From: Candidatus Omnitrophota bacterium
GTDB lineage: Bacteria > Omnitrophota > Gorgyraeia > Aquiviventales > Aquiviventaceae
Assembly (NCBI GenBank): GCA_016206685.1
Contig: JACQRB010000023.1
Span: 29,287-93,286, forward strand
DNA length: 64,000 nucleotides
Reading direction: 5' to 3'
The notes beneath the pieces are model-generated. The model was not told the origin of the DNA, ran no database searches, and saw only the letters and a list, made by a program, of their open reading frames with translations. Position numbers and translations under genes: made by a program. Shown piece after piece: positions 5,252-46,104 of this stretch (positions are counted from its first letter, which is position 1; every line of letters starts with the position of its first letter).

Positions 5252-6013
5252 TCAGGGTTTCTTCACGCACACGAATCCGACGAAGTTGTACCACTGGAAG
5301 AATGTTTCAACGACCTGGAAGCCGGCCTTCCGAAACAGTGCCATATTCTCATCGATGCGGTAGGGAATCAGGACGTTCTCCAACGCCTCCCGCTTGCGCA
5401 GAATCTCGGTGTCGGAATAGCTGTTGCGTTTCTTGAACTCGTAGTAGAGCTCGATGAACAGCCGGTTCATGTCGCTGCTGTTGGTCAGAATCTTTTCCGT
5501 CACGATGAGCGCGCCGCCGTCCACAAGCGCCTCGTAGAGCCGCCGCAGCAGCGCCTCCCGATGCAGCGGTCGGACGAACTGCAGCGTCCAGCAGAGCGTG
5601 ATGATGCTGGCAGGCTCCAGCGGCGCGTCATTGATATCGCCGTAGCGGATATCAATCAGGTGATCAAGCCCTTGTGCCTTGATGCGACCCCGGGCCTTCT
5701 CGACCATCGGCATCGAGTTGTCGTAGCCGATGAGCTGCGGCTGGTCATCGTTGAGCTCCCGCGCCATATTCATGAGGGTCGTCCCCGTGGAGGAACCTAA
5801 GTCATAGATGCGGGTGTCCGGCGTGTAGAATTTCTTCGCCAGCTCTTTGATGACCATCTGCTGCTCCACGTAGAACGGGACGCTGCGCAGCAGCATGTCA
5901 TCGAACACCTCAGCGACTTCCCGTGTAAACGCAAAATCACTGCCTCGCGCGGCGGTCCCTTCAAAGAGCTGATCACGCATCCTCTCTCCTTGTGTCTCTG
6001 CGGCCTCGGTCAT
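5252..6013 (-). CDS. cmoA-like: CmoA-family protein (carboxy-S-adenosyl-L-methionine synthase homologue / class I SAM MTase fold)
   Basis: AEVFDDMLLRSVPFY...RIYDLGSSTGTT...IGYDNS.PMVEKAR...LQFV...DGGALIVTEKI...YSDTEILRKREALENVLIP...AGFQVVETFFQWYNFVGFVCVKK is collinear with E. coli CmoA (VAEVFPDMIQRSVPGYS...VYDLGCSLGAAT...IAIDNSPAMIERCR...LENVMLTD...FQCFNFGSLVALK). The start was chosen at the internal ATG 6013, which forms an ATGA overlap with the upstream gene. The track ORF extends to 6100. Confidence 0.7.
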   Translation of the reverse strand: MTEAAETQGERMRDQLFEGTAARGSDFAFTREVAEVFDDMLLRSVPFYVEQQMVIKELAKKFYTPDTRIYDLGSSTGTTLMNMARELNDDQPQLIGYDNSMPMVEKARGRIKAQGLDHLIDIRYGDINDAPLEPASIITLCWTLQFVRPLHREALLRRLYEALVDGGALIVTEKILTNSSDMNRLFIELYYEFKKRNSYSDTEILRKREALENVLIPYRIDENMALFRKAGFQVVETFFQWYNFVGFVCVKKP

Positions 6014-6735
6014 CGCCGGATCTCCAGCAGCTCGAAGCGCATCACCAGGCATAAGCCGTTCGTCAGCAACCGCCGCTGCTCGGCGTCGCGCATCGTCCAT
6101 GTCCGGACCGGATCATCGGCGCGCGGCGGCAGATCGAAGGGCAGCTCAAACGGAATGAACGTGTGCCGCTCCGGCCCGACGTGCACGTCGAGATAACGCG
6201 AGAACGACGCCTTGCTGAAGAGATTCCAGCCCGGCTCCCGATGCTCGGGGTCTGGATCGTCCACCAACCGGTACTTCACCCAGACGTCGATGGGATGCGG
6301 GTTGAAGCCGCCAAAGACGTACACGCGTCCTCCCGGTTTTGTCCAGAAGAGCAAGTTCGACAGGCAGGGTTCAAACGCATCGAAGATGGAATGCACCCCC
6401 AGCAGGAAGGCGATATCCAGCGAGGCCTCGGGCAACAGCGCCCGGTCCAGCACGGAGCCCTCTCGAAACGTCACACCGGGAACCTTGCGTCGCGCCTGCG
6501 CCAGCAATTCCGGCACCACGTCGTAGCCAGTGTAATGGGCGTCCGGCACTTGCCGCTTCAGATACGCGAGAAATTGTCCCGCCGCACACCCGAAATCGCC
6601 CACCTGCGCCCCCGGCATAAGCGCACCGCTGGCCTGAGCCTGTGCGTAGGCGACCTTAAAGACTTCTTTGGGACGTTCGTAGTACTCGTCCGCCAGATAG
6701 ATGGCCTTATCGTGCGTTCGCGCAACGTTGATCAT
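6010..6735 (-). CDS. class I SAM-dependent methyltransferase
   Basis: 241 aa. Motif I is VGDFGCAAGQF and the post-I acidic residue is YTGYDVV. Its size is typical for Methyltransf_11/12. Confidence 0.6.
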   Translation of the reverse strand: MINVARTHDKAIYLADEYYERPKEVFKVAYAQAQASGALMPGAQVGDFGCAAGQFLAYLKRQVPDAHYTGYDVVPELLAQARRKVPGVTFREGSVLDRALLPEASLDIAFLLGVHSIFDAFEPCLSNLLFWTKPGGRVYVFGGFNPHPIDVWVKYRLVDDPDPEHREPGWNLFSKASFSRYLDVHVGPERHTFIPFELPFDLPPRADDPVRTWTMRDAEQRRLLTNGLCLVMRFELLEIRR

Positions 6736-7829
6736 GCACAGGAACCCGCGCCCACTTGCCCCTCGTTTCCAAAGACGGCTGGGAACACCGCCTTACGGCA
6801 GCGCTGACAAGCCAGGGGCTGTTTGGAGCCGTCGGGATCATTCACCGCCAGTCGCAGCCGCTTCATCTCTTCGCTATTCCAAATCGCATGGAGACGCTGG
6901 TCGAACACGTTGCCGATGTGAAGACTCAGCCCATCGAAACTGCAGCACGGATGAACCGATCCGTCATTGTTGATCGAGACGCGCTGGTACGGCTGAGGGC
7001 AATCTCCCACTTGCAACAAATCGGTATCCGGAATGCGAAATTGCTGCTCGAGCTGTGCATAGTTCGAGTAGCTGGCGGCAGGGTTGACAAACGACTGGAT
7101 ACAAATGAAATCCACTCGGTCTTTCCAATACGCCACGAACTCGTCAAGCTCCTTGTGGTTGAGCTTGCTCTTGACGAACGACACCCGGGTAATTGGGAGT
7201 TGCTTGCCCTGGGCTTTTTTCATCTCCAGAAAGCGGTTGATGTTGCCCATCACCTGCTGAAAGTTGCCGCCCGGCCGCACGTGGTTGTAGGTGTCTTCCC
7301 GAATGGCATCGAGCGAGAAATAGAGTTTCGTGAGCCCTGCATTGAGGAGTTCCTGCGCGCGGGTTTCCGTCAGCATCGTCGCATTCGTCAGGATGATGAC
7401 ATCCAGGACCCCGGCCTGGCTGGCGTAGCGGATGTAGTCGTGGAGATTGCGGGTTCCCAGCGGTTCATTATTGACATTCAGGGTGACGGAGGCCAGGCCG
7501 TGTGGGACCCCCTCATCGATGATCTCCTTGAACTTCTCGAACGTCACCACGTTCTGGCGGTTCTGGACGGCGTACGGGTGGTTGGCATCAAACTCCTCCG
7601 GCTTGATCTGCAAGACGCACTGGGGACAGCGTAGGTTGCAGCCGTAGTACAGCTCAAAGTCGATGTGGATGGGGTAGTCCTGAACGACCTTGAGCTCTTT
7701 GGCCTCCTCCCACCGCTGCCGATAGGCTCGGTACGGCTCACCCAGGATCTGGGCGAGCTTCGCATCCGGATCTCCGGTCACGGTGACCTGCTTCCATGTT
7801 GGTTTGGACATCAGATCCTCCTCAGCCAT
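6732..7829 (-). CDS. radical SAM enzyme with C-terminal SPASM/twitch-type Cys-rich domain
   Basis: The CNLRCPQC (CxxxCxxC) radical SAM cluster motif is near the N-terminus. The C-terminal segment CPQPYQRVSINNDGSVHPCC...ACQRCRKA is SPASM-like. The start is uncertain: the track ORF runs to 7895, and internal Mets lie at 7829 and 7811. Confidence 0.7.
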   Translation of the reverse strand: MAEEDLMSKPTWKQVTVTGDPDAKLAQILGEPYRAYRQRWEEAKELKVVQDYPIHIDFELYYGCNLRCPQCVLQIKPEEFDANHPYAVQNRQNVVTFEKFKEIIDEGVPHGLASVTLNVNNEPLGTRNLHDYIRYASQAGVLDVIILTNATMLTETRAQELLNAGLTKLYFSLDAIREDTYNHVRPGGNFQQVMGNINRFLEMKKAQGKQLPITRVSFVKSKLNHKELDEFVAYWKDRVDFICIQSFVNPAASYSNYAQLEQQFRIPDTDLLQVGDCPQPYQRVSINNDGSVHPCCSFDGLSLHIGNVFDQRLHAIWNSEEMKRLRLAVNDPDGSKQPLACQRCRKAVFPAVFGNEGQVGAGSCA

Positions 7830-8666
7830 GAGGGAACACCGCGACCAGTGGCTGCGAGTGGCCTGGAGCGGCTCCAAATTCAACCAGCCGGACATTGAGG
7901 GCAGCAGCTTTCATGTGCTTTTTTGCTCTGGGATAGCTGTGCTCTGTAAAATGGAAGAGGTTGGCCGCCGCGACAGCGTCGGCTTGACCCTCCACGACCC
8001 CTTGGACAAAATGGTCAAACGTCCCGGCGCCGCCGCAGGCGATCACGGGAATGTCCACGGCTTCCGCGACCGAATGCACCAACGCCAGGTCATATCCCTG
8101 CGCCATGCCATCTCGATCAATGGAGTTCAAGAAGATCTCCCCGGCGCCCTGCCGTTGGGCTTCCTGCGCCCACGCCACCGGCTCGCGCCCGGTCGGCGCC
8201 CGGCCGCAGTCGGCGACCACCTCATAGCGCCCGTCGTCATGGCGCTTGACGTCAATGGACACGACCAGGCACTGGCGCCCGAACACGCGAGCCGCCTCCC
8301 GCAGAAACGACGGCTCCTTGAGCGCGGCCGTGTTGATGACCACTTTATCGGCGCCGCGGCGCAGGCGCTGCGCGATGTCATCGAGCGTGCGGATGCCGCC
8401 GCCGAACGCCAGCGGCACGAAGCAGGCTTTGGACACGGCCGAGAGGATGTCCAGGATGTTCCGGAGACTTTTCACCTTGTGGTCGTCCCGCCGCAAATCG
8501 TGCTCCCCGTCCCGCGTGATATCGAGGTAGATCAGCTCATCCACCTGCCAGTCGGTAAACCGCTTCACCTGATGGATCGGATCGCCCAGGTTCTGGTGAT
8601 ACTGGAACTGCTCGCTGCGGACGATCAGCCCGTTCTTCAGCAAGATGCAGGGAATCAGCCGGGTCT

Positions 8667-8673
<7 letters not shown>
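7822..8673 (-). CDS. HisF-like imidazole glycerol phosphate synthase cyclase subunit homologue (WbuZ-type, LPS/glycan amidotransfer)
   Basis: Internal start MLKTRLIPCILLKNGLIVRS...ELIYLDITRDG...IPVIACGGAGT matches the HisF N-terminus and the (beta/alpha)8 phosphate-binding motifs. The track ORF carries an approximately 35 aa spurious extension. Confidence 0.75.
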
Positions 8674-9289
<616 letters not shown>

Positions 9290-9293
<4 letters not shown>

Positions 9294-10447
9294 CGGGCCA
9301 CGGCCTCGGGGTGTTGATCCCAAATGTTGTCTTTCGCCCATCGGCCATCGGCATCCTTGCGCCACACGCGCGGGTCGCGGAAGGTGTCGGCGATGCGGTC
9401 GAACTCCTCTTCGGTCATGCCGACGTACTCCAGCCATCGCTTCAGATCCCGCGGCTTCACATGGTCGTACTTCCTGACCATTTCAATGCCTTCCTCGCGC
9501 ATCATGTAGCCGGCTCGGATGTCCTTGCAGGCGTGGTCCGTCGCGCGTCCGTAGCCGAACTTGATGTATTTCAGGTAATCATGCGCCCCGTTCTCATGCA
9601 TGTCGTCGAGATTGGAGAACTTCCGATACGTACGATCAAACGGCTCCGGGGACGGCTCCCAGCCATACCGCTCCATCACCAGCTTCACATGCCGGTTGGC
9701 GTCCCATTCCACGTAGTTGCCCAGGAAGATTCCCCGCACGCCGACGCGCGCAATCTCTTGATCCGAAGGATAGCGGGCCCAGAGCATGTCCTGCGGCGTC
9801 AAACCGTCCGATGTCCCCGCCTCCACCAGATCCGTCCAATCAAAGCCGCGCTTCACGTATTCGTACACGAACCGGGCGGTCAGCTCCACCATGTCATACA
9901 GGGAATACATCCCGGCTAAATCCACCTGGCCGTGCTCCCCGTAAAACACGAGCGGAATCTGATGCGTCACGGCGATCTGAACCGGAACGGTGTAGATGCC
10001 GCAGTGGTTGTGCCAGTTCATATCCCCCATGAGCGTAAAGCCCAGACGGTTCAGCGTGACGAGCGTCTTCACGCTTGGCGAGCAGATCACGTGATCCACC
10101 CCGAAGACCTCCCGCATCCGCATGAGGTTGCGCCATCCCACCTCCAGAAAGTTGTTGCCGTTGTACGTGACCAACAACGGGTTCATCCCAAACTGCTCTT
10201 TGATGAGGTGAGTCTGGTAATAACTGTCCTTGCCGCCGCTGACGGCAATGATGCAGTCGTAGTTGCTGCCGTCCTTGGAGCGATACTCCTCCAGGAGTTC
10301 GCGCAGCATCTGTTCGCGCCGCCCCCAGTCGATCTGTGGCTTCTGCTCATGCACGCGGCATCCACTGCAGACCCCACGGTCATCGAACGTCAGCGGCAAT
10401 GCTGACGCCGACGGATAGACGCACCGCGTGCAGTAGCGCATCGCCAT
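9290..10447 (-). CDS. N-acetyl sugar amidotransferase (WbuX/PseA-like PP-loop ATP pyrophosphatase with N-terminal zinc ribbon)
   Basis: 385 aa. The N-terminal sequence CTRCVYPS...CSGCRVHE is a zinc ribbon. The PP-loop SGGKDS sits in IIAVSGGKDSYYQ. This enzyme family co-occurs with HisH/HisF homologues. Confidence 0.7.
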
Positions 10448-12418: not shown

Positions 12419-14611
12419 TCAGACACCTACCCCGTCAGCCACGCTAACTGGCTGGAATCGTTCCTGACGGAGACTGAATCGCACGGTTTCCCACACCGCG
12501 CCACCAACCAGACGTGACTGTCGCATCTCTGGTTGAAACCCCAGTTTCTCCAGCGTCTTGATGCTCGGCAGATTGTCCACCACCGCCCCCGCGATAATCT
12601 GTCGAAGTTCCAACCGGGAGAACGCATACGCGCACAGCAGGCTCCAGGCCTCGGTGGCGTAACCCTTGCCCCAGCAATCCTTCTCGCCGATCATCAGTCC
12701 GGTGTCTGCCGTTCCGGTCTGCCGGTTGATGTTGTTCAGTGTCACATTCCCGATGTGGCGGCAGGTGGCGTTTTCCACAATGGCAAAGATTCGGTGGGTG
12801 GTACTCTCACGAAACCGTTCCAGATAGGCGCGGATATCATCGAGCGTCATTGGGCGCTTCCCCACCTCGAGATAGCGGGTCACCGTGGCGTCATTCAACC
12901 AACCCAGATAGCGCACGGTCACATCCGCCTCGGTCAATGGCCGCAGAGAAATCCGTGAGCCTATCAATGCGTGGGGTGACTGCTCTAATTCGCGCACAGG
13001 CATGACAGTAGATCGGTCCGCAGCCAGGCGAAGCGTCAGATGAAGCGAGTACTTTGCTTGAACCCGCTGAAACCCGTTGGCCTCATACAGCGTGAGCGCT
13101 GCAATGTTTGTGGCTTCGGTACCGACTTCAAGCTGAGCCAAACCCCGCTCGATCGCCCACCGTTTCGCGGTTCCAAGCAGGACCGTCCCGATGCCACGGC
13201 CGCGCCAGCCTCGGGCGACGGCCAACAGGCCGATTGAACCAATCTCGCAGCCAAGCGCCTCGCTCAGCGCGTCCTCGCGGCGCATCGTGACATACCCCAC
13301 AGGCCGCCCGGCGGCTCGCGCCACCCGCACGACATCAGCCGCACTGCCATTGAGACAGTTCGCGATCCACCGAAGGTGCAAACGCCTCGTGCCCTCGACG
13401 GGAAGGTTGGGATCAGCATGGAATCGGGTCCCGGCGGCGAACGCCTCGGCCGTGATGGTGTCCAGCATAGGAGCATCCTGCGGGCGGGCTGATGTCACGA
13501 GGACATCATCGTGCGCGGGCGCCACCGCGTGAACGGAGACCGCCCAACGCAGTCCGAGGAACGTCGTCATAACCTGAAATCCTCGCCGCTGCGCCTGCCG
13601 TCGATGGATGACGTCCTCCGTCGGCACACGATAATGAAGGTGCGAAATCCCGCGTCGTCGAGCTTCCGCGATCACCTCATCCAAGATTTCATCTGATGGG
13701 TCCGTGAACGCGACGAGTTCAGCCATCGGCCATCCGTAGATCTCGCTGTCAAACGACAAGAGGCGCAGGATGGCGGCGCCTTCCCCATCAGGCGAGCCCG
13801 TCAATACCAACGAGGAGCCGTCGCGCGCCAGCTTCAACTGCACGAGCCGCTCGGCAGCCTCCAGGCTCATCGCGGAATCACCGCCCCAGCCCGATTGTTC
13901 CAGCGGCGCCAGCACCTCCACCGCGCGCTGCACGGCCTCAAGCCGACGCACGATGTCCGACCCACGCCAGCGAAGGCATTCCGACTCATTCCCGGCGCAC
14001 AGCGCCCGAACCTTCGCCAAGTCTGCCGGCGTGTCGACTGTCACCGAGCAGGCAGCCGGCGGCGTCGGAGTCGGTGCCTTCCACGTGACGATCCGAAACT
14101 GTTGTGGATGTTCCTTCATGACCAGCGTCACGTGCTCGCGATGGGCGGGCGTTGTGGCGGCCTGCTCGGCTCGGCGCAGCGCGTCGAGCGTGGTGACTTC
14201 AGAGCCTGCGCCGTCAATAAGATCGCACGCCACCGCCAGATCGGCTCCGTGGGCGGCGCGCTCCTTCACCAACATGTCCAGCACTTCGGGGTCGGTCAGC
14301 GCGTTATCGGCCGTGACGCGAACGATCACCTCCGCGCGCACCTGCCGCGCGGCCTTGAGGTACCGGCCCAGGACGTCGTCCTCGCTGCCGACGACCGACG
14401 GCACCCCCAGGGTGCTAGCCAACTCGAGGATCGGCCGGTTCGCCGGCACATCGCCCGTCGCCACCACGATGCCGTCCAACGATCTTGCCTGGCGCAGACG
14501 TTCCACCAAAAACTGGAGGAGCGGCTTGCCGGCGATCGGCATGAGGACTTTGCCGGGCAGACGCCGCGACTGCATGCGGGCCTGGATGATAGCGACCGTC
14601 CGCATGGTCAT
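12419..14611 (-). CDS. tri-domain fusion: acylneuraminate/SpsF-type cytidylyltransferase + two GNAT N-acetyltransferase domains (PseH/RimL-like)
   Basis: The real start is the internal MTMRTVAIIQARMQSRRLPGKVL (CMP-sugar synthetase motif) at 14611, ATGA-coupled to the upstream gene. The first approximately 205 aa of the 935 aa track ORF are Arg/Gly-rich out-of-context sequence. The middle GNAT domain is IGSIGLLAVARGWRGRGIGTVLL. The C-terminal GNAT domain is ISLRPLTEADV...GLMIGEKDCWGKGYATEA. Confidence 0.7.
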   Translation of the reverse strand: MTMRTVAIIQARMQSRRLPGKVLMPIAGKPLLQFLVERLRQARSLDGIVVATGDVPANRPILELASTLGVPSVVGSEDDVLGRYLKAARQVRAEVIVRVTADNALTDPEVLDMLVKERAAHGADLAVACDLIDGAGSEVTTLDALRRAEQAATTPAHREHVTLVMKEHPQQFRIVTWKAPTPTPPAACSVTVDTPADLAKVRALCAGNESECLRWRGSDIVRRLEAVQRAVEVLAPLEQSGWGGDSAMSLEAAERLVQLKLARDGSSLVLTGSPDGEGAAILRLLSFDSEIYGWPMAELVAFTDPSDEILDEVIAEARRRGISHLHYRVPTEDVIHRRQAQRRGFQVMTTFLGLRWAVSVHAVAPAHDDVLVTSARPQDAPMLDTITAEAFAAGTRFHADPNLPVEGTRRLHLRWIANCLNGSAADVVRVARAAGRPVGYVTMRREDALSEALGCEIGSIGLLAVARGWRGRGIGTVLLGTAKRWAIERGLAQLEVGTEATNIAALTLYEANGFQRVQAKYSLHLTLRLAADRSTVMPVRELEQSPHALIGSRISLRPLTEADVTVRYLGWLNDATVTRYLEVGKRPMTLDDIRAYLERFRESTTHRIFAIVENATCRHIGNVTLNNINRQTGTADTGLMIGEKDCWGKGYATEAWSLLCAYAFSRLELRQIIAGAVVDNLPSIKTLEKLGFQPEMRQSRLVGGAVWETVRFSLRQERFQPVSVADGVGV

Positions 14612-15432
14612 CCCCGGGCTCCGAATGGCAGCCCCGTCCCTACGCGCTGCGCCAGCTCCCGATACGCCGCGACGAGACGTCCCGCGTCTCGATAGTATTC
14701 GATCGTCACGAACTCCACCGGCGCGCGCGCGCAGAGCCACTCGAGCAGCTCCCATTCCCGCGGCCCCGGTGGCTCGTGCAGGTCCTCCCAGATCCCGCTG
14801 AGCGGGCCGCACGCGCTGATCTGCACTTCGCGCACGCGATGGAGCGGCAAGGCCTCCAGGTACGCCTCGGGTGTCGTTCCCAGATTTTCGGCGGAAATCC
14901 TGGCGTGCGCCACATCCAGCAGCAGCTCCGCGTCGATCGCCTCCAGCACCCGGCCCATGAAGCCGGGGTCGCAGACCATGCCGTAGGCATCGCTGGGGGT
15001 TGGAAAATAGTTGAGGTTCTCTACGCGCAGCGTTCCCGGAAAACGCGCGCGCAACCACGCCGCGTGGCGGCGGGCCAAGGCGATGTACTCCGGCTCGCCC
15101 AGGCGAGGGCCGCGAAGGTGGTAGCGGGGATAGCCGTTGGGCGAGGCGACCGTCTCCACGTCGTGGACGGCCGGACCGAAGTCGCAGGCGACACTCTGGA
15201 CCGAACGGCGCGCCATCAAGCGCCACAGCCCGAGCTCCTCAAGCTGCGCGCCAAAGGCCTCATCAATGATGTTGACCGGGGTGTCCATGAACGCCGTGGC
15301 GTTCGGGAAGCACGGCTCCGGTCGGTACCGCTTATATGTGACCGCGGCAATCAGGGGCGCCAAGGCATCAGCCGCCGCCAACGCCGCGTCGCTGGAGGCG
15401 ACGCACAGTCGTGGAACGACGTCGCTTCTCAT
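14608..15432 (-). CDS. DUF692/MNIO-like TIM-barrel protein (xylose-isomerase-like superfamily), function unknown in this context
   Basis: 274 aa from internal Met MRSDVV... LRVENLNYFPTP...LLLDVAHARISAENLGTTPEAYLEALPLHRVREVQISAC...ELLEWLCARAPV.EFVTIEY resembles the UPF0276/DUF692 pattern (ENVSxY...LLLDVNNVYV...DP..YLD.LP..RV.E.H.AG), recalled from memory. It is ATGA-coupled on both sides, at 14608-14611 and 15429-15432. Confidence 0.5.
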   Translation of the reverse strand: MRSDVVPRLCVASSDAALAAADALAPLIAAVTYKRYRPEPCFPNATAFMDTPVNIIDEAFGAQLEELGLWRLMARRSVQSVACDFGPAVHDVETVASPNGYPRYHLRGPRLGEPEYIALARRHAAWLRARFPGTLRVENLNYFPTPSDAYGMVCDPGFMGRVLEAIDAELLLDVAHARISAENLGTTPEAYLEALPLHRVREVQISACGPLSGIWEDLHEPPGPREWELLEWLCARAPVEFVTIEYYRDAGRLVAAYRELAQRVGTGLPFGARG

Positions 15433-16466
15433 CCCCCCACGTGTCTCCACGTAACCGCCTCTTCGCTCTTCACGTCGCAGGCCAGACGTCGCCCTTTGAT
15501 CTGAGGCCACTCCCACGATGATAGGGCGCGTCTCGATCGTTCGGCCGCGCGAGCCGGGCGCTGGAACACTACACGCGCGCGCTGGAGCACCGTCCCGCTC
15601 GCCAGAGGCTCCGAGGCGACGATGATGCGGCGCGCCGTCGCGCGCACCGGTCGCTCCGCGGCGACCGGCGCCTTGCGGGAGCTGCCCAGCGCTTGCTCGA
15701 CACACCGCACGCCGTCAACCAGCGCCTTCAATTCGTGGGTATCCACGGAGAAGCGGTGGTCGTCGCCGGGCAACGCATGATCGAGCGTAAAATGCTTTTC
15801 GATAATCGAAGCTCCCAGCGCCACGGCCGCGCAGGGGACCGCGATGCCCATCGTGTGGTCCGAGAACCCAACCGGCACGCGCAGCGCCCGGCGGAGCGTC
15901 TCCATGGCTCGCAGGTGGACGTTGGCCGGCTGCGCGGGATACTGCGAGACGCACTGCAAGACGGCGATCTGGGAGACGCCGCCCTGGCGCAGCACCGCCA
16001 CCGCCCGGCGGATCTCGCCCATATCCGCCATTCCGCTGGAGAGGATCACCGGCTTCCGCATGGAGGCGACGTGAGCCAGCAAAGGCCGGTGGGTCACGTC
16101 ACACGAGGCGATCTTGTACGCGGGAACCCCCACGCGCTCCAAGAGATCGACACTGGGCTCATCCAGCGGCGTCGAAAACCAGACGATGCGCGCGTCACGC
16201 GCCGCGCTCGCGATCGCGCGATAGTCCTCGACGGAGAGCGCGGCGCGCCGGTACTCGGCATAATCCGCGCTCGAGCGTGGCAGGAGCTGGTCCACCCGGC
16301 ATGTTTGAAACTTGATCGCATCCGCGCCGGCCTTGGCTGCCTCCTGAACCAACCGGATCGCCAATCCCCGGCGCCCGAGATGATTAATCCCAGCTTCCGC
16401 GACGATAAAGACCGGTCGTCCTTCTCCGATGCGTCGTCTGTTGATGGTCATGACGGGAAGCGACAT
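15429..16466 (-). CDS. N-acetylneuraminate synthase family protein (NeuB/PseI/LegI-like nonulosonic acid synthase) with C-terminal SAF domain
   Basis: GRPVFIVAEAGINHLG, AIKFQT and FSDHTMG are hallmark NeuB-family motifs. The start was chosen at Met 16466, 1 nt after the upstream stop. Confidence 0.8.
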   Translation of the reverse strand: MSLPVMTINRRRIGEGRPVFIVAEAGINHLGRRGLAIRLVQEAAKAGADAIKFQTCRVDQLLPRSSADYAEYRRAALSVEDYRAIASAARDARIVWFSTPLDEPSVDLLERVGVPAYKIASCDVTHRPLLAHVASMRKPVILSSGMADMGEIRRAVAVLRQGGVSQIAVLQCVSQYPAQPANVHLRAMETLRRALRVPVGFSDHTMGIAVPCAAVALGASIIEKHFTLDHALPGDDHRFSVDTHELKALVDGVRCVEQALGSSRKAPVAAERPVRATARRIIVASEPLASGTVLQRARVVFQRPARAAERSRRALSSWEWPQIKGRRLACDVKSEEAVTWRHVGG

Positions 16467-16467
16467 G

Positions 16468-17667
16468 TCACGCGCGGTATTTGGCGACCAGGCGTCGCAC
16501 GGCGGCAATGACGTCCCACACGTCCTCCTCGCTCATCTTCGGCGAAATCGGCAGCGACACGGTGCGTTCAAAGAGCGACTCGGCCACCGGAAAACTTCCC
16601 GGGGGATACCCCAACGCTTTCTGGTAGTACGAATGCAAATGGAGGGGGCGGAACAGCACGCTCGTGCCGATCTGTTCGGTCCGGAGCTCCTCGATGAACT
16701 GATCACGGCTGATTCGTAGCCGCTTCGGTTGCAGAAGGATGGAGTAAAGGTGCCAGGCCGACCGCACCTCCGGCTTGGCCTGCGGTCTGACAATCTCCTC
16801 CAAATCGGCAAACGCCTCCGTGTACATCGCCGCAAAGCGGGCGCGGCGCTGCAGGAACTGTTCCAGCTTCGCCAGTTGGTGCAGGCCCAACGCCGCCTGA
16901 ATATCCATCATGTTGTACTTGTAGCCAAGCTCCTGGATGTCATAAAACCAGGAGCCGCGCGGGGCGTAGCGACCCCAGATGCGCCGGGCATCGCTGATGC
17001 CGTACATGGACAATCGCCGCATCCGCTCCGCCATCTCCGGGTCATTCAGCATCGCCATGCCGCCTTCGCCGGTCGTCAGATTTTTGGTCGCATAGAAACT
17101 GAAGCAGGTGACGGGACCGAAGCTGCCGATCTTGCGCCCGTGGTACTCACTGCCGATGGCGTGGGCGGCATCCTCGATCACGGCGAGGCGATGGCGCTTG
17201 GCGATCGCGTAGATCGCGTCGAGATCGCAGGGATGTCCGGCGTAATGGACGATCACCAACGCCTTGGTGCGCGGCGTCACGGCGGCTCCCAGACGCGTCG
17301 GATCGATGTTGAATGTCTGCGCCTCGCTGTCGACGAAGACGGGACGGGCCCGTTGGTACATCACGACGTGGGCGGTGGAAGCAAACGTGTAGGTAGGCAA
17401 GATGACCTCATCCCCCTCGCCGATGTCATGCGCGACCATCGCCAGATGGAGCGCCGCGGTACAGGAGCTGACGGCCACCGCGCACCGGACCCCCACATAC
17501 TGGGCCACTTGCTCCTGAAACCGTTCCGTTTTCGGGCCGGTGGTGATCCACCCCGAATCCAGCGTGTCCAGGAGCTCCGCCTTTTCTTCCGGCCCGATGA
17601 GAGGCGGAGCGAATGGTTGGAACGTGGTGCGCCGCGGGCGGGTGTCAAGGGCGGCTACGTCAGGCAT
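16468..17667 (-). CDS. DegT/DnrJ/EryC1/StrS-family PLP-dependent sugar aminotransferase (PseC/LegC-like)
   Basis: The internal start is MPDVAAL... SCTAALHLA, DEVILPTYTFASTA and the PLP-lysine context FSFYATKNLTTGEGG are present. Confidence 0.8.
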   Translation of the reverse strand: MPDVAALDTRPRRTTFQPFAPPLIGPEEKAELLDTLDSGWITTGPKTERFQEQVAQYVGVRCAVAVSSCTAALHLAMVAHDIGEGDEVILPTYTFASTAHVVMYQRARPVFVDSEAQTFNIDPTRLGAAVTPRTKALVIVHYAGHPCDLDAIYAIAKRHRLAVIEDAAHAIGSEYHGRKIGSFGPVTCFSFYATKNLTTGEGGMAMLNDPEMAERMRRLSMYGISDARRIWGRYAPRGSWFYDIQELGYKYNMMDIQAALGLHQLAKLEQFLQRRARFAAMYTEAFADLEEIVRPQAKPEVRSAWHLYSILLQPKRLRISRDQFIEELRTEQIGTSVLFRPLHLHSYYQKALGYPPGSFPVAESLFERTVSLPISPKMSEEDVWDVIAAVRRLVAKYRA

Positions 17668-35391: not shown

Positions 35392-36332
35392 CAGATAAAA
35401 CGGTCGCGGTAATATTCCACGATCGCCTTGATTTCGTCATCGAAGCGCCGCGCGTTCTTCCATCCGAGCCGGCGCAGCCGCGTGTCGTCAAGCGAATAGC
35501 GCACGTCTTCCCCCATGCGCACGTAGTTGAATTGCACGTGGAGATTGAGCTTCACGCGCTTGCCGAAATAGCAGCGCAGGACTTTCTCGATGACCTCGCG
35601 GTTGGTGGCTTCGTAGTTCCCTGAGACGTTGTAGACGCGGTTGCGCTGGCCGCGCTCGAGGATGTGAAAGATGGCCGCCGCGGTGTCTTCAGCGTGCAGC
35701 CAATTGCGGACGTACAGCCCTTTGCCGTGCAGCGGAATCTTCTTGCGCAGCGACAGATACTTCACGGCCTTGGGGATGAGCTTCTCCGGATACTGGCCGA
35801 TCCCATAGTTGTTGGTGGGACGGATGATCAGGTAGGGCACATTGTGGGTGCGGTGCCATCCCAGAATCAGCATATCCGCGGAGGCCTTGCTGGCCGAGTA
35901 CGGGTTGCTGGGATGCAGCGGGTGCTCCTCGGTGTGCTTGCCGTCGAGCACGTCGCCGTACACCTCATCGGTGCTGACCTGCACCAGCAGCGGCATCTCG
36001 TAGTTCCGTTTGCCGCGGATCAGCTCCAGCAGGTTTTCCACGCCCATGATGTTCGCCCAGGAAAACCGGCTGCTGTCCACGATGCTGTTGTCCACATGGG
36101 TCTCGGCGGCGAAGTTGAAGACGGCGTCCACGTCGTAGAGGTGGTCCATCGTCACGATGTCGGCCTCGGTGAACTTGAACGACGCGGACTGGCGGAACTC
36201 ATCCAGCAGCTCGGGCCGGGCGGCGTAGGTCATCGTGTCGACGCCCCACACCTGCCATCCGCGCTGCAGGCAGGCCCGCGTGAAATGCGACCCCATGAAC
36301 CCGAGGCACCCGGTGACGCACACGACTCTCAT
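35388..36332 (-). CDS. rmlB-like: dTDP-glucose 4,6-dehydratase-like (RmlB-type extended SDR)
   Basis: MRVVCVTGCLGFMGSHF and PYSASKASADMLIL (RmlB YxxxK context), with VSTDEVYG. It has ATGA overlaps at both ends. Confidence 0.7.
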   Translation of the reverse strand: MRVVCVTGCLGFMGSHFTRACLQRGWQVWGVDTMTYAARPELLDEFRQSASFKFTEADIVTMDHLYDVDAVFNFAAETHVDNSIVDSSRFSWANIMGVENLLELIRGKRNYEMPLLVQVSTDEVYGDVLDGKHTEEHPLHPSNPYSASKASADMLILGWHRTHNVPYLIIRPTNNYGIGQYPEKLIPKAVKYLSLRKKIPLHGKGLYVRNWLHAEDTAAAIFHILERGQRNRVYNVSGNYEATNREVIEKVLRCYFGKRVKLNLHVQFNYVRMGEDVRYSLDDTRLRRLGWKNARRFDDEIKAIVEYYRDRFIW

Positions 36333-38323
36333 GGCCGACTGGCCTTTGTTGAGGGGGTGATGGATGATTCCGGCTCGATCACTTCGACGTGGGGAACCGG
36401 CACGATGAAGCCGTTAGTGTACCGCGCCGCGCGGCACCGCGCCATGATTTCCTGCCGGAAATTCCAGGCCAGCAGGAGCAGGTAGTCGACGCGGGCCTGT
36501 GCGAGGGCGTCGATGCCGGCGATCCGCATACGGGCGCCGGGCGTGTACCAGCCCCACTTCTTGGGATTGTCATCCACCGCCACCGGCACCATCTCGCGCG
36601 ACAGCTCGAAATAATTCATCAGGGTGTTGCCCTTGGCGCTGGCGCCGTAGGCCCAGATGGTTTTGCCCTCCTGGCGCAGGCGGCGCAGGACGCGCGTCAG
36701 GTCCTCCTTGCTCCGGCGCACCCGCTGGGCGAACGCCTCGTAGGGGGCCCGCCGCGTGATGCCGAAGGCCTGCTCGCGGGCCAGGTACTCGCCCACGGAG
36801 GGAGCCACCGGGTAATCCCGGCGGCGCGCCAGGCTCACGCGAATGGTTCCGCCGTGGAGCTGGCCGAAAAAGTCCACGTCAATGGCCTCCATGTCGTGCG
36901 CCTGCGCCAGGCGCTGCAGCGCGTGCACGCTCATGTACGAGAGGTGCTCGTGATAGGCGGTGTCGAACTCATTCTCTTCAATGAAGGGGATCACGTACGG
37001 GCATTCGATCACGCACAGCCCCCGGGGCGCCAGGCAGCGCTCGACCCCGACCAGAAACTCATGCACGTCGTCAACGTGGGCGATGACGTTCGTCGCCGTG
37101 ATGATCTTCGGCGGCGCGAAGCGGCTCATGATGTCTTTGGCCGTCGCCTGCGACCAGTAGGTGCACAGGGTGCGGATGCCGGAGGCGTTGGCTTCCGCGG
37201 CGAGATTCTCGGCCGGATCCACGCCGACGACGTTCATCCCGCGCTCCTGGAACCGCGCCAGCAGGCAGCCGTCATTGCTGGCGATGTCCAGCGCCCAGTC
37301 GCCCCGCGATGCCTGCGTGCGCCGGATGGCGGACTCGGCCAGCTCCGCGCAGTGGGAGCGAAAGGTTGCCGTCGTGGAGCTGACGTAGAGGTAATGGCGG
37401 AACATCAAATCGGGATTGACCACTTTCGTCAATTGCGACAGGCCGCACGTCTCGCACAGCTGAATGGCCAGCTCTTCCCTAAATTCGGGCTGCGGCAGGT
37501 CCTCCTCCCGCAGGTACGAATTGGCCAGCGGCGTGACGCCCAGGTCCAGGTACGTCCACAGCGACGAGGAGCCGCAGATGCGGCAGGCGGTCCTGGACAC
37601 CGACGGCGGCGCGTCGGTCCGCATGACCGTCTGAAGCTTGGTGGTGTCCAGCGAGCTGTCGCCGGGCAGCAGGTACGGCAGCTTGAAGTCCTTTCTGGTG
37701 CACGCCTCGACCGATGGATTCTGCTCGGCCTTGATGATCTCGTAGACCGAACGCTTCTGCTTGGCGCCGACGTTGATGATGCCCCGCAGGGTGGTCTTCA
37801 CCGCCAGGTGATGCACGGCCTTGGCCGCCTCCGCGACCGGAAGGCGCGAGGTGTACTGGTCGGTGCACGCCTTGGCAAACGGGATCGCCGCGTAGAACGA
37901 CGTGCGGATGATCAGCGTGTTGTCATGCTGCTGCGCGGCCATCTCGCCGCCCAGCTTGGATTCGGCGTACCGGTTGATCGGCCAGAGGACCGATTCCTCC
38001 GAATAGTCGCCCCGCTCTCCCGGATAGACGTAATCGGTGGACAGGTAGACCAGCCGCACGTCGTGCCGGAGGCACCACAGCGCCACGTTGGCGGTGCCGA
38101 TGATGTTGGCTTGCAGGTAGTCCGCCGGCGGGGCGTCGTGGTGCGTCTCGGCCGCCGCGTGGATGATGACATCGGGCCGGGCCGCCCCGCAGTACCGCTC
38201 AACGCTCTCATAGCGTGAGACGTCCAACGCGGACTTGGGCGGCGCGTCGATCGAGGGATCCAGCGCCACCAGCGCCTTTGCCAGGTTCCCTTGCCCTCCC
38301 GTCACCAGAATCTTTGGAGCCAT
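36329..38323 (-). CDS. bifunctional fusion: dTDP-4-dehydrorhamnose reductase-like (RmlD) N-terminal domain + NDP-hexose C-methyltransferase (TylC3/NovU-family) C-terminal domain
   Basis: The N-terminal MAPKILVTGGQGNLA...YAESK is RmlD-like. It is followed by CRICGSS...C-x-x-C (Methyltransf_13 zinc module), an MTase core (ALDIASNDG) and the C-methyltransferase C-terminal domain (YLLLLAWNFRQEI...FIVPVP). Confidence 0.7.
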   Translation of the reverse strand: MAPKILVTGGQGNLAKALVALDPSIDAPPKSALDVSRYESVERYCGAARPDVIIHAAAETHHDAPPADYLQANIIGTANVALWCLRHDVRLVYLSTDYVYPGERGDYSEESVLWPINRYAESKLGGEMAAQQHDNTLIIRTSFYAAIPFAKACTDQYTSRLPVAEAAKAVHHLAVKTTLRGIINVGAKQKRSVYEIIKAEQNPSVEACTRKDFKLPYLLPGDSSLDTTKLQTVMRTDAPPSVSRTACRICGSSSLWTYLDLGVTPLANSYLREEDLPQPEFREELAIQLCETCGLSQLTKVVNPDLMFRHYLYVSSTTATFRSHCAELAESAIRRTQASRGDWALDIASNDGCLLARFQERGMNVVGVDPAENLAAEANASGIRTLCTYWSQATAKDIMSRFAPPKIITATNVIAHVDDVHEFLVGVERCLAPRGLCVIECPYVIPFIEENEFDTAYHEHLSYMSVHALQRLAQAHDMEAIDVDFFGQLHGGTIRVSLARRRDYPVAPSVGEYLAREQAFGITRRAPYEAFAQRVRRSKEDLTRVLRRLRQEGKTIWAYGASAKGNTLMNYFELSREMVPVAVDDNPKKWGWYTPGARMRIAGIDALAQARVDYLLLLAWNFRQEIMARCRAARYTNGFIVPVPHVEVIEPESSITPSTKASRP

Positions 38324-38328
38324 GATCG

Positions 38329-38751
38329 CTATTTCGCCGGCCGCATCCAATCGAAGCCCATCGCCTCGATTGACATGCGTTCCTCGTCCTTCGGGTTGTA
38401 CTTGTTCGTAATCCAGTACAGGACGATCGCCGGCTTATCGGTGAAGTTGTAATGGCCGTGCCACATTCCCCGCGGAACGAACAGCGCTCCGTCCTTGGCG
38501 CTGCGCTCGGACGAATAGACCCATTCCACCGTGCCGCCCTGCGAGGCCGGCTTGTCGCACAGCCCGAATTTCAGCGCCCCCTTGATGCAGAGCTGGTAGT
38601 CGTCCTGCTGCTGATGGCGGTGCCAGGCCGACATGGCGCCCGGATAAATGACGACCACGTTGATGTCCCCCTGCGGAATTGGAAAGACGTCGCAATACCG
38701 CACCCCGCGGTCGTCTTCATGGAATCGAAGCGGATGTCGCCGAATCTGCAT
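38329..38751 (-). CDS. cupin-fold NDP-4-keto-6-deoxyhexose epimerase/ketoisomerase (RmlC/FdtA/WxcM-like)
   Basis: 140 aa small cupin. HRHQQQDDYQLCIKG has an H-x-H metal/active-site pair followed by a beta-barrel pattern. The size fits FdtA-type 3,4-ketoisomerases better than full-length RmlC. Confidence 0.5.
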   Translation of the reverse strand: MQIRRHPLRFHEDDRGVRYCDVFPIPQGDINVVVIYPGAMSAWHRHQQQDDYQLCIKGALKFGLCDKPASQGGTVEWVYSSERSAKDGALFVPRGMWHGHYNFTDKPAIVLYWITNKYNPKDEERMSIEAMGFDWMRPAK

Positions 38752-38769
38752 GGCCTCCTCGCTGTCTGC

Positions 38770-42356: not shown

Positions 42357-42724
42357 ATGACCGCCACACCCAGATAGCGCAGGGGCGGGACGGCTTCATG
42401 CAGAATGACCTGTGAGGCGAGGGTGACCAAGACGAAGCCGAGCGCCCACCAGGGGTAGGCATAGCTCAGCTCCAGACGGGACAGAACCGCCAGCCAGAGA
42501 AAGACGCTCACCGCATAAGCGGCCATCGCCGTCAGGATCAAGGGATTCGTCGCCAAGGACCACACGGTACGCGGAATGGTCCGGAGCTCAAGGCGCATCA
42601 CTCCGAAGGCATTCATCGCAGTTTTTAACAGCAGTTCCCCCACGACCGCAATCACGACTGCGACAAGCATGAGGAGAAGGGAGGTCGTCGTCATGCCGTT
42701 GCGACTGATGAGAATGTTCGTCAT
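42323..42724 (-). CDS. small 4-TM EamA/SMR-like transporter subunit (ArnE/ArnF-like polyprenol-phosphate-sugar flippase component)
   Basis: 133 aa with four hydrophobic helices. It sits immediately upstream of and overlapping the GT-C genes. Confidence 0.55.
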   Translation of the reverse strand: MTNILISRNGMTTTSLLLMLVAVVIAVVGELLLKTAMNAFGVMRLELRTIPRTVWSLATNPLILTAMAAYAVSVFLWLAVLSRLELSYAYPWWALGFVLVTLASQVILHEAVPPLRYLGVAVICLGLVILART

Positions 42725-43789: not shown

Positions 43790-44845
43790 TCACAGGCTTT
43801 CAAGATCAACCCATCGCCCCGTCGCATCCGCCTTGCGAGCGGCGTCCAAGAGGCACTGGACTCGATACCCGTCTTCCAACGTGGGAGCGCTTGGGGTTCC
43901 TGATTGGACCCAGTTCACAAAGCGTTCGACTAATCGCCCAACCGCAACGATCCGGCCATCTCCCTCCGGGAGATCCTGGCTCTGTGTCTGAATCGCCTCC
44001 AAACGATTCTGCTCCCTCCTCCCCTGCAGCAATCTGAACCCCTTCACGTAGTCTGAGGTCGGATTCTCCAGCACAAGAGTTCCCTGCTCGGCGTAGATCT
44101 CCACGCGATGGCCGCTCCCCAGATAGGCATGGGTACTCACCGTGACACCAACCGGGGTGCCGTCATGAAGCACCAGGCAGATCATCGCGAGCTGATCCCC
44201 CCGCTCGACAGACGCGTCCCGATCAGACCTAAACAGATGCGCAGAGATTTTCTGGACGGGTCCCAAGAGCCATTCCACATAATAGAAGATATGGGAGCCA
44301 AAGGCGTTCAAAGCGCCGCCGCCTGCTTGCTGACGGACTTTCCATGTGTCACGCCCCATCCGAGCCGCGGACGTCTCCACCTGCCAGGAGACGGTGACAT
44401 AGCGCACGCGACCCAGCGCTCCGCTCGCCAGGAGCGTCTTTGCACGCATCCACGTCTCTGTGGATGGAAACTCAAAATCGACCATGTGAGCGACTCCGGC
44501 TCCTTGGGCGGCTCGTAGCATCTCAGCGGCTCTCCCACACGTTGTGGCCACGGGTTTCTCGCAGAAGACGTGCTTGCGACGAGCGCAGGCCGCCACGGCG
44601 ATCTCCGGCTGAATCGAAGGCGGGGTGGCGATCGCCACCGCGTCGAGTGTCTCGTCCAGCATCATGGCCCGCCAATCTCCGTAGGCGTTCGGGATGCCCA
44701 GACGGCCGGCGACGTGCTGTGCCCGTTCGAGGGTACTCGCGCACAGGGCCACCACCCGACATCGGGGGTCGGACTGAAAGGCGGGAACCAGCACCTGTTG
44801 ACCAAATCCGATCCCCACCACACCCACCGTGACTCGACGGCTCAA
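43790..44845 (-). CDS. Gfo/Idh/MocA-family NAD(P)-dependent sugar oxidoreductase
   Basis: The N-terminal VGVVGIGFGQQ is a Rossmann motif. The EKP motif is in HVFCEKPVA. Confidence 0.7.
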   Translation of the reverse strand: MSRRVTVGVVGIGFGQQVLVPAFQSDPRCRVVALCASTLERAQHVAGRLGIPNAYGDWRAMMLDETLDAVAIATPPSIQPEIAVAACARRKHVFCEKPVATTCGRAAEMLRAAQGAGVAHMVDFEFPSTETWMRAKTLLASGALGRVRYVTVSWQVETSAARMGRDTWKVRQQAGGGALNAFGSHIFYYVEWLLGPVQKISAHLFRSDRDASVERGDQLAMICLVLHDGTPVGVTVSTHAYLGSGHRVEIYAEQGTLVLENPTSDYVKGFRLLQGRREQNRLEAIQTQSQDLPEGDGRIVAVGRLVERFVNWVQSGTPSAPTLEDGYRVQCLLDAARKADATGRWVDLESL

Positions 44846-46104
44846 ATCTTTCCTCCCTTGCCGAAGAAATTCCAGACATCCACCACGGGCTTGCCCTTCG
44901 TATCAAGATTCCGGTACGCATCATGGGGGACGCACAGAATGAGCAGATCGCTCTTGGAGATGACGTCGTCCAACGGGACGATGTCCGGATCCCCCTGCAC
45001 AAACGGACTGGTGGTCAGCACGCGCTTCGCGTGGAACAACAGCGCCTTCTTCAACTTATAACTCAAGGAGGCCCGGGGGTCATCACTGTTGGCTTTGAAC
45101 GCCATCCCTAACAGCCCCACGGTCATGGTGGACAATCCATACTGTTTAGCCAGTTGCTGGACCACATAGAGGGGTAAGCCCTCATTGATCCACATGGCCA
45201 TACTGCCCAATTGAAACTGATTGTTGGAGAATCCGGTGAGCTGCATCGTGTCTTTGAAGAGGCAGGGCCCAGCCGCAAAGCCCGCGCCCGGCAGATCCCG
45301 CATCCGTGAATAATTGGCCTTCAGGCCCGCCAAGATGCGGTAATAGTCGAGACCGGCGGAGTTCGCGATCATGTAGAACTCGTTGGCCACGGCGAATTGG
45401 ATATAGCGATAGGCGTTGCAGAACAACTTGGCGAATTCAGCCTCCATCGGACGCAGGCGCACGATCAGAGGAGCGAGTTGTGAGAAAAACTCCGCGGCGC
45501 GATCTTCCGCGTCCTGAGTCGTCCCGCTGACAATCTGTGGAAGTTGCCGGAGCTCCTGGATCGCATAACCCTGGACGATCCGCTCAGGACAGAACGCCAA
45601 TTGAGGACGCTTCCCATGAGACCGGAGATACCGGTGCAGCCAGTCCGTGGTTCCTGGATAGACGGTGGAACGCAGGATGACCAGTTGATGATCGGACAGG
45701 CGGGGCAACAGCGGTTCAAACGCACGGATCATGCTTTTCAAGGCGGGGTTGAGGAACTCGTCAATGGGAGTCCCGATCGTCACGATGATGATGGGCACGC
45801 CGGCGAGATCGTCGGGATTGGTGGAGGAAAAAGACAGCCGTTTCTTGGCCAACGCGTCTTTCAGGAGCGGCCCGGCCCCGTGCTCCAGGAAGGGCATCGT
45901 CCCTCGCTTGATTCCATTGAGCGCGCGCCCATTCACATCGTACAGCAAGACCTGTTGTCCCTGACTGGCGAGGACGAGCGCCAGCGGCAACCCCACGTGC
46001 CCGGCCCCGCCGACGATGCACACGTCCGCGTGGCGACGACTTGCCGCACGCTGGGGCCGGCGTTGGCGCGACCCCGGCCGCGTCACGGGCTGAATGGTCG
46101 GCAT
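44842..46104 (-). CDS. nucleotide-sugar 6-dehydrogenase family (UDP-glucose/UDP-ManNAc/GDP-mannose dehydrogenase-like)
   Basis: VCIVGGAGHVGLPLA is the NAD-binding motif. The catalytic Cys context is GFAAGPCLFKD. The start is internal at MPTIQP. Confidence 0.75.
   Translation of the reverse strand: MPTIQPVTRPGSRQRRPQRAASRRHADVCIVGGAGHVGLPLALVLASQGQQVLLYDVNGRALNGIKRGTMPFLEHGAGPLLKDALAKKRLSFSSTNPDDLAGVPIIIVTIGTPIDEFLNPALKSMIRAFEPLLPRLSDHQLVILRSTVYPGTTDWLHRYLRSHGKRPQLAFCPERIVQGYAIQELRQLPQIVSGTTQDAEDRAAEFFSQLAPLIVRLRPMEAEFAKLFCNAYRYIQFAVANEFYMIANSAGLDYYRILAGLKANYSRMRDLPGAGFAAGPCLFKDTMQLTGFSNNQFQLGSMAMWINEGLPLYVVQQLAKQYGLSTMTVGLLGMAFKANSDDPRASLSYKLKKALLFHAKRVLTTSPFVQGDPDIVPLDDVISKSDLLILCVPHDAYRNLDTKGKPVVDVWNFFGKGGKI

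Follow-up and report, generated by a model that had tools for sequence, protein, structure and literature searches.

The 64,000-nucleotide stretch analyzed here as a whole (the window) belongs to contig JACQRB010000023.1 of a Candidatus Omnitrophota bacterium, has a GC content of about 63% and carries one long run of tightly packed genes on the minus strand. Within this run we studied a gene for a radical S-adenosylmethionine (SAM) enzyme with a C-terminal twitch domain (Table 1). In transcription order, the genes around it start with a DegT aminotransferase, a short-chain dehydrogenase/reductase (SDR), a PFTS-motif protein, two SDRs and a PseC/ArnB-like aminotransferase. These are followed by a NeuB-family synthase, an MNIO-like protein, a fusion of a cytidylyltransferase with two GNAT domains, an AsnB-type amidotransferase, WbuX, HisH, HisF and the radical SAM gene itself. 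Downstream of the latter lie genes for a class I methyltransferase, a CmoA-family protein, a NanM-like sugar O-methyltransferase, an MsbA/HepA-like fused ABC exporter, an FkbM methyltransferase and an ArnC/PgfS-like glycosyltransferase of family GT2. The remainder of the window encodes glycosyltransferases, methyltransferases, SDRs and PMT_2-type membrane transferases. The region is a surface-glycan cluster centred on a nonulosonic acid (a nine-carbon sugar of bacteria that resembles sialic acid), and the NeuB gene defines the pathway in which the radical SAM gene sits. An earlier reading made from the letters alone (the sequence-only reading) had placed the radical SAM gene between an amidotransferase module and methyltransferases. 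This position was confirmed, with WbuX/HisH/HisF upstream and the methyltransferase block downstream, and the MNIO-like, AsnB-like and fused ABC genes that the same reading had reported were all recovered by domain scans.

The product of the radical SAM gene is 100% identical to a 359-amino-acid NCBI protein (P0001) from a Candidatus Omnitrophica metagenome-assembled genome (MAG), encoded on a 109-kb contig and named there "SPASM domain-containing protein." Its homologues reach an E-value of 1e-181, which puts the reality of the open reading frame far beyond chance. The gene had initially been drawn at 6732-7895; a genuine minus-strand radical SAM gene lies there, with its start further in. 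ATG 7895 was ruled out by the 359-residue NCBI call and because every homologue starts 4–10 residues ahead of a conserved WKQ. The start is either ATG 7811, the NCBI call, which is preceded by a Shine-Dalgarno-like GAGGAGGA, or ATG 7829, which would give an 8-nt overlap with the HisF stop (ATGGCTGA). This overlap is also present in the three closest homologues (74–75% identity). Coupling of the gene to HisF, as claimed earlier, was retained in the form of this overlap at ATG 7829, and the 74-nt overlap implied by the longer frame was not. At the other end, the radical SAM stop overlaps the methyltransferase start as ATGA (6732..6735), exactly as first described. Both couplings are kept in the closest homologues. 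A methyltransferase homologue of 65% identity follows the radical SAM gene in locus L097 with the same 4-nt overlap, as judged by coordinates, and homologues of 30% identity occur one to two genes downstream of the radical SAM gene in loci L080, L082 and L092.

Table 1. Features of the radical SAM gene and its operon (positions are those of the window).
Feature	Position	Strand	Basis and remarks
Class I SAM methyltransferase	6010..6735	minus	Pfam Methyltransf_25/11/12; ATG overlaps the radical SAM stop
Radical SAM/twitch enzyme, 359 amino acids	6732..7811	minus	Alternative start ATG 7829, giving 365 amino acids
Twitch domain, residues 267-344	6780..7013	minus	Family profile alignment to BtrN 163-240
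Predicted auxiliary-cluster ligands	C271 6999..7001; C289 6945..6947; C335 6807..6809; C338 6798..6800	minus	
Extra Cys C290	6942..6944	minus	Directly after C289
CX3CX2C motif CNLRCPQC (C58, C62, C65)	7617..7640	minus	Predicted site of the SAM-cleaving [4Fe-4S] cluster
HisF/radical SAM junction	7816..7829	minus	HisF stop TGA 7822..7824, GAGGAGGA 7816..7823, alternative ATG 7827..7829; read from sequence
WbuZ/HisF-like cyclase subunit of N-acetyl-sugar amidotransferase	7822..8676	minus	Directly upstream, translationally coupled; WbuZ 283 bits (cut-off 299.7) and AglZ/HisF2 234 bits (cut-off 310), both below; Pfam His_biosynth 194.6 bits, passes
HisH-like glutaminase subunit	8667..9296	minus	TIGR01855 227.5 bits, cut-off 105.4
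WbuX-family N-acetyl sugar amidotransferase, acetamido to acetamidino (predicted)	9290..10447	minus	TIGR03573 347.4 bits, cut-off 203.2
CMP-ulosonate cytidylyltransferase with two GNAT domains	12419..14613	minus	Pfam CTP_transf_3, Acetyltransf_1, Acetyltransf_3
MNIO/DUF692-like TIM-barrel protein	14608..15429	minus	Directly after NeuB; Pfam MbnB_TglH_ChrH, C-terminal half only
NeuB-family nonulosonic acid synthase	15429..16508	minus	Pfam NeuB 272.9 bits, passes; NeuB_NnaB 324.5 bits, below 399.65

Against Pfam the protein passed the thresholds for both Radical_SAM (55.8 bits, threshold 29.5) and SPASM (54.4 bits, threshold 21.5). We aligned first 53 homologues and then 273 family members. Within the CX3CX2C motif, C62 and C65 do not vary and 271 of the 273 sequences have C58, and the GGE-like SAM-binding motif takes the form NNEPLG (residues 113–118), which aligns with GGEPLM of MoaA. 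Beyond CX3CX2C, the only Cys residues conserved in both alignments are C271, C289, C290, C335, and C338. They are arranged as C-x12-G-x4-C-C ... C-x2-C, with about 20 residues left to the end of the protein. A full SPASM domain carries two auxiliary clusters and a seven-Cys motif (CX9-15GX4C - gap - CX2CX5CX3C - gap - C), whereas a twitch domain is a shortened SPASM with a single auxiliary cluster, held in BtrN by four Cys residues (PMC9012708). In neither alignment was the second-cluster half of the motif (CX2CX5CX3C...C) or any later conserved Cys found. Because this half is absent, and because the four aligned ligands agree with the published definition of twitch, the C-terminal domain is, as far as the alignments tell, a BtrN-type one-cluster twitch and not a full SPASM domain, with cluster binding predicted. 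Of the original SPASM/twitch assignment, the Pfam SPASM match and the twitch ligands were borne out, and the full seven-Cys SPASM was not.

Two further features mark the family. The residue directly after the second twitch ligand, C290, is Cys in 242 of the 273 members and occurs in every synteny clade; BtrN has Phe at this position, and in one paralogous subgroup Asn-His-Asp stands in for the C290 region (PCNHD replacing PCC). Such a pattern of conservation is that expected of an active-site residue determining the outcome of the reaction, and C290 may be one. The second feature is a conserved N-terminal extension of about 50 residues, which an AlphaFold2 model shows as one short strand and two helices. 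Its N-terminal helix contains Tyr30-Arg31, which is universally conserved across the family and is a candidate binder of a carboxylate or of the phosphate of cytidine monophosphate (CMP).

When a profile of the family was compared with all PDB sequences, BtrN, the 2-deoxy-scyllo-inosamine dehydrogenase of the butirosin pathway (PDB 4M7T/4M7S), came first with an E-value of 3.6e-22, and its C169, C187, C232, and C235 fell one-to-one on C271, C289, C335, and C338. Matches to anSME (about 5e-6) and DesII (about 1e-5) in the same search were far weaker. BtrN resembles the protein studied here in its radical SAM core with a C-terminal twitch, in its four Cys ligands and in acting in a carbohydrate pathway. 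It differs in that the present family has the N-terminal extension with Tyr30-Arg31 and Cys290 in place of Phe, and in its context, which is 2-deoxystreptamine aminoglycosides for BtrN and nonulosonic acid for this family. The AlphaFold2 model (pLDDT 93.9) alternates strands and helices over residues 49-240, in keeping with the partial TIM-barrel core of radical SAM enzymes, and Foldseek searches with it returned the SPASM/twitch enzymes SuiB, BtrN, MoaA, DesII, BlsE, SkfB, EpeE, and anSME with TM values of about 0.5–0.7, none of them close; SuiB was the top match (TM about 0.6). By these comparisons the protein is not an orthologue of BtrN or of the twitch epimerases, and its likeness to BtrN exists at profile level only. 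The comparison with BtrN, DesII, and anSME that the sequence-only reading had proposed gave BtrN as the nearest relative by profile, and no clade of known function that holds the protein.

As the same reading had pointed out, SPASM-type enzymes are typical of the maturation of RiPPs (peptides synthesized by the ribosome and then modified post-translationally), and it had left room for a cryptic peptide or glycopeptide matured by the radical SAM enzyme and, along with it, the products of the MNIO-like, AsnB-like and ABC exporter genes. Points that agree with such a role are the Pfam SPASM match, a weak NCBIfam likeness to sactipeptide, PqqE, and mycofactocin maturases (in every case far under the cut-off), and the MNIO-like open reading frame, whose C-terminal half passes the Pfam MbnB_TglH_ChrH threshold. 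The enzyme also shares the SPASM match, the overall fold and the first half-motif (CX12GX4C) with the SPASM-domain RiPP maturases SuiB, PqqE, and AlbA and with anSMEcpe. Unlike these, it is without the CX2CX5CX3C...C half and a second cluster; no RiPP recognition element (RRE) or PqqD-like domain was found in it by Pfam, and no peptide gene was found in the window or in 74 homologous loci. The largest intergenic gap over positions 190-25092 is 51 nt, and a search for small open reading frames found no credible one in the other gaps of the window; the gaps at 38351..38769 and 42357..42720 hold just low-complexity frames without homologues. A C39 peptidase domain is missing from the ABC exporter, whose best matches are glycan or lipid exporters of the HepA/MsbA/PglK type. 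The AsnB-like protein passed the asparagine-synthase model (385 bits vs. 267) and failed the lasso-cyclase model (231 vs. 525). In the 74 homologous contexts, in which many neighbour clusters are without annotation, no recognised peptide-maturation, protease or precursor-type gene was seen, and the annotated neighbours are sugar genes only; moreover, the fusion partners of family members include a cytidylyltransferase domain and a Maf-like domain with a weak score (see below). We rejected the peptide reading of the locus because no RRE domain or peptide gene was found and the spacing of the genes leaves no place for a precursor, and consider a RiPP maturase highly improbable. Observations that the sequence-only reading had itself named as contrary to a peptide product were thus obtained for the twitch domain and the empty precursor search, and not for grouping with sugar-modifying enzymes of established function. 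A SPASM annotation beside AsnB, MNIO, and ABC genes need not mean RiPP.

The MNIO-like gene is found in comparable places elsewhere. Homologues lie directly after NeuB in L080 (1908-2711), L083 (7312-8100) and L092 (2871-3668), another stands at the start of L082, and one is located beside the radical SAM gene in L012 (11113-11715). Since no peptide genes lie near these homologues, which belong to distant nonulosonic-acid clusters, the role of the MNIO-like protein is probably sugar-related. Two side observations concern the adjoining cytidylyltransferase gene. The two GNAT domains of its product differ, one being WecD-like and the other PseH/RimL-like. A 935-residue open reading frame listed from 15226 has Arg/Gly/Ala-rich first 200 residues that overlap the MNIO-like gene and are probably untranslated.

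To place the enzyme in its family, homologous loci were collected, 12 from species genomes (all MAGs) and 79 from metagenomes, and removal of redundancy left 74 (within L001-L096). Genes were called in each locus, the five genes on each side were clustered, and family identities were checked with Pfam and NCBIfam. The genome loci come from Omnitrophota, Planctomycetota, Desulfobacterota/Thermodesulfobacteriota, Nitrospirota, Elusimicrobiota, Acidobacteriota, archaea, and Candidatus Thiovulum. Within five genes of the radical SAM gene, the most frequent neighbours were a paralogous twitch radical SAM enzyme (28/74 loci) and a B12-binding radical SAM enzyme (26/74), followed by CMP-ulosonate cytidylyltransferase (23/74) and WbuX (22/74, in 13 of the 74 directly upstream on the same strand). 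NeuB and DegT aminotransferase were each present in 18 loci, SDR in 14, a Maf/MptE-like protein in 13, HisH and HisF in 11 each, carbamoyltransferase and LIC12162-family transferase in nine each, and a GT29 sialyltransferase-like protein in six. All these counts are minima, because many of the contigs are short. In gene tables of five homologues, NeuB and/or CTP_transf_3 clusters were present in all. A neighbour-joining tree gave clades with coherent synteny and placed the window protein among WbuX/HisF-adjacent sequences; a second, distant clade (33–36% identity) has the same order, NeuB-(MNIO-like)-HisF-HisH-WbuX-radical SAM.

Three fusion proteins were found as well. P0192 (584 residues) joins a cytidylyltransferase domain to a radical SAM enzyme of the same family, and P0065 (591 residues) joins such an enzyme to a Maf/MptE-like domain, recognized with 23.7 bits (below the Pfam threshold of 34.6); these two tie the family to CMP-nonulosonic acid metabolism. 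The third, P0195 (1444 residues), consists of three radical SAM-SPASM units with a weak CBM6 match (22.4 bits, below 28.9). An exhaustive profile search recovered 6,101 clusters at 50% identity (E ≤ 1e-30), a figure that includes paralogous subgroups. The 150 best-scoring representatives were without annotation, and the names given by the sources to the listed family proteins were all generic. Judged by its gene neighbourhoods, the radical SAM family is large and at home almost only in nonulosonic-acid and glycan clusters. With the family almost confined to sialic-acid-like sugar clusters, the enzyme of the window most likely modifies a sugar and not a peptide.

We conclude that the enzyme is very likely a BtrN-like twitch enzyme that tailors the nonulosonic acid made by the surrounding operon. 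A radical sugar modification with a BtrN-type precedent was the other possibility raised in the sequence-only reading, and it agrees with BtrN as top profile relative, with the alignment of the four ligands, and with the examined homologous loci, which are all of nonulosonic-acid or glycan type. Described tailoring of nonulosonic acids in Campylobacter and Legionella (acetamidino groups by PseA/WbuX, N-methylation, O-acetylation) has in common with the window NeuB, a CMP transferase, WbuX/HisH/HisF, and methyltransferases. To our knowledge, all tailoring in the described nonulosonic-acid pathways is non-radical and none has a radical SAM step. Within the library of papers searched, none combined "radical SAM" with "nonulosonic acid," and broader searches on related sugars gave nothing relevant. 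The proposal amounts to twitch radical SAM sugar tailoring on a new substrate class, in which the fold and the general chemistry are familiar.

Starting from the observed domain type, ligand pattern, and pathway context, we infer what the substrate, the carbon attacked, and the outcome of the reaction might be. The substrate is most probably a 5,7-diamino nonulosonic acid made acetamidino by WbuX/HisH/HisF, either free or CMP-activated; in the clade of the window an acetamidino substrate is probable because HisF or WbuX is translationally coupled upstream of the radical SAM gene. In the proposed mechanism, the CX3CX2C cluster would split SAM to give a 5'-deoxyadenosyl radical, which would take a hydrogen from a C-H bond of the sugar. 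In the preferred continuation, Cys290, next to the ligand C289, would quench the substrate radical from the opposite face, resulting in epimerisation, and the twitch [4Fe-4S] cluster would then re-reduce the thiyl radical. A close alternative to this third step is the oxidation, as in BtrN, of a secondary alcohol to a ketone by loss of two electrons, for which the twitch cluster would serve as electron acceptor.

Cys-donor epimerases with both a radical SAM core and a twitch-type domain for one cluster are known from other pathways; HygY is one of them, and the substrates of HygY and NeoN are sugars. In the radical SAM epimerase NeoN the H-atom donor is Cys249 (PMC10991966), and in the peptide epimerase EpeE (YydG) it is Cys223, with the twitch cluster proposed to reduce the thiyl (PMC13012085). 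In all three a catalytic Cys quenches the radical, a part for which C290 is the candidate here, and EpeE was among the Foldseek matches. Unlike the present family, for which a nonulosonic acid is proposed, they act on aminoglycosides or, in the case of EpeE, on a peptide, and no sequence-level match to them was obtained. As the net reaction we favour epimerisation with Cys290 as hydrogen donor over dehydrogenation, because C290 is so widely kept in the family and in every synteny clade, is Phe in BtrN and is replaced by Asn-His-Asp in the paralogous subgroup; this choice is tentative and held with limited confidence.

Dehydrogenation would proceed as in BtrN. An alcohol of the nonulosonic acid, or of a hexose precursor, would be converted to a ketone with the twitch cluster taking the electron, and neighbouring enzymes would then transaminate the ketone, reduce it to the epimer or process it otherwise. 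This outcome is consistent with the closest solved relative being BtrN, whose four-Cys ligand pattern is identical, and with the proposal that BtrN-type twitch clusters act as acceptors in two-electron oxidations (PMC9012708). Aminotransferases and reductases are at hand: DegT, found near the radical SAM gene in 18 loci, directly follows it in L001, and the window has two DegT and three SDR genes. However, no aminotransferase or reductase is consistently adjacent, the steady neighbours being WbuX, cytidylyltransferases, and transferases, and the extra Cys290 has no counterpart in BtrN. A BtrN-type dehydrogenase is possible, and we regard it as rather unlikely.

Other radical changes of the sugar, or of its N-acyl or acetamidino group, are conceivable too, such as dehydration or deoxygenation, formation of a C-C or C-N bond (amidine cyclisation), or the creation of an acceptor site for the coupled methyltransferase. 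The tight and recurrent association with the acetamidino-forming WbuX/HisH/HisF fits with this, and so does the ATGA-coupled class I methyltransferase, after which the CmoA-like gene follows at about 30 nt or with a second overlap. Twitch and SPASM enzymes are moreover known for diverse crosslinks and oxidations (PMC9012708). Yet no precedent on nonulosonic acids was found, methyltransferase and CmoA genes are not constant neighbours throughout the family, and the radical SAM enzyme that adjoins a CmoA-like gene in L090 belongs to the paralogous PCNHD subgroup and not to that of the window enzyme. We think chemistry of this kind unlikely.

Several points weigh against tailoring of the operon's nonulosonic acid by a BtrN-like enzyme with Cys290 as hydrogen donor. 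A scan of the protein against NCBIfam reached no curated family at its cut-off (best 83.7 bits vs. 380). A single-sequence search of the PDB reached MoaA only and not BtrN, so that kinship with BtrN is seen at the level of profiles. Neighbours vary by clade, and the family may not be isofunctional. The role of C290 as candidate hydrogen donor is suggested by conservation and analogy. Finally, a UDP-sugar 6-dehydrogenase beside a GFO/IDH/MocA oxidoreductase, resembling WbpA/WbpB, is encoded at 43790..46203 (minus strand), a pair that probably represents a route to UDP-2,3-diacetamido-mannuronic acid. WbuX, or the AsnB-like amidase, could use such a diacetamido-mannuronic sugar, and therefore the target sugar of the operon is uncertain. 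Apart from this pair, the region encodes at 36329..38350 (minus strand) a protein whose N-terminal part, an RmlD-like reductase, is fused to a sugar C-methyltransferase (Methyltransf_13 zinc domain and Methyltransf_14), which suggests that a C-branched deoxysugar is made elsewhere in the region.

The CmoA-family gene at 5252..6013 (minus strand) is a side observation in its own right, as it places a carboxy-SAM synthase (TIGR00740 252.6 bits, cut-off 193.3) in a glycan operon. Its closest homologues (71–78% identity, in L098/L099, L100, and L101) all belong to one module, which is composed of PFTS, usually the methyltransferase, CmoA, NanM-like, FkbM (absent in L101), and ABC genes, with radical SAM/SPASM paralogues near. 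L090 shows an overlap between a CmoA-like gene and the end of a twitch radical SAM gene of the PCNHD subgroup. A specific functional link between the radical SAM enzyme and CmoA was downgraded on account of the subgroup to which the L090 enzyme belongs and because the close CmoA homologues travel with the PFTS/NanM-like/FkbM/ABC module and not with the radical SAM clade of the window. These placements suggest a use of carboxy-SAM dedicated to glycans and transfer of a carboxymethyl group to a sugar. We know of no use of carboxy-SAM beyond cmo5U in tRNA, and a literature search on CmoA or carboxy-SAM in glycans gave irrelevant matches only. One could go further and suppose that inversion or oxidation of an acetamidino-nonulosonic acid carbon by the twitch enzyme is coupled with the methyltransferase and the CmoA-like synthase for placement of the carboxymethyl group, a scenario that strikes us as quite improbable. 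If true, it would be a founding radical SAM route to sialic-acid-like sugar diversity, with a stereoisomer or keto intermediate beyond the known NAD-dependent pathways, and, as far as we know, the first use of carboxy-SAM outside tRNA modification.

Flagella, S-layers, capsules, and lipopolysaccharide are decorated with nonulosonic acids (legionaminic, pseudaminic, and related acids), which shape the recognition of bacteria by phages and hosts. Our results describe twitch radical SAM enzymes that form a large family and are embedded in nonulosonic-acid clusters, often beside B12-dependent radical SAM enzymes and paralogues of their own. For biochemical work the family offers a defined candidate, that is, one enzyme with few plausible substrates and one diagnostic Cys. 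Its presence implies that sugar structures so far unseen are made by uncultivated anaerobes of the Omnitrophota, Planctomycetota, Desulfobacterota, Nitrospirota, Elusimicrobiota, and archaea.

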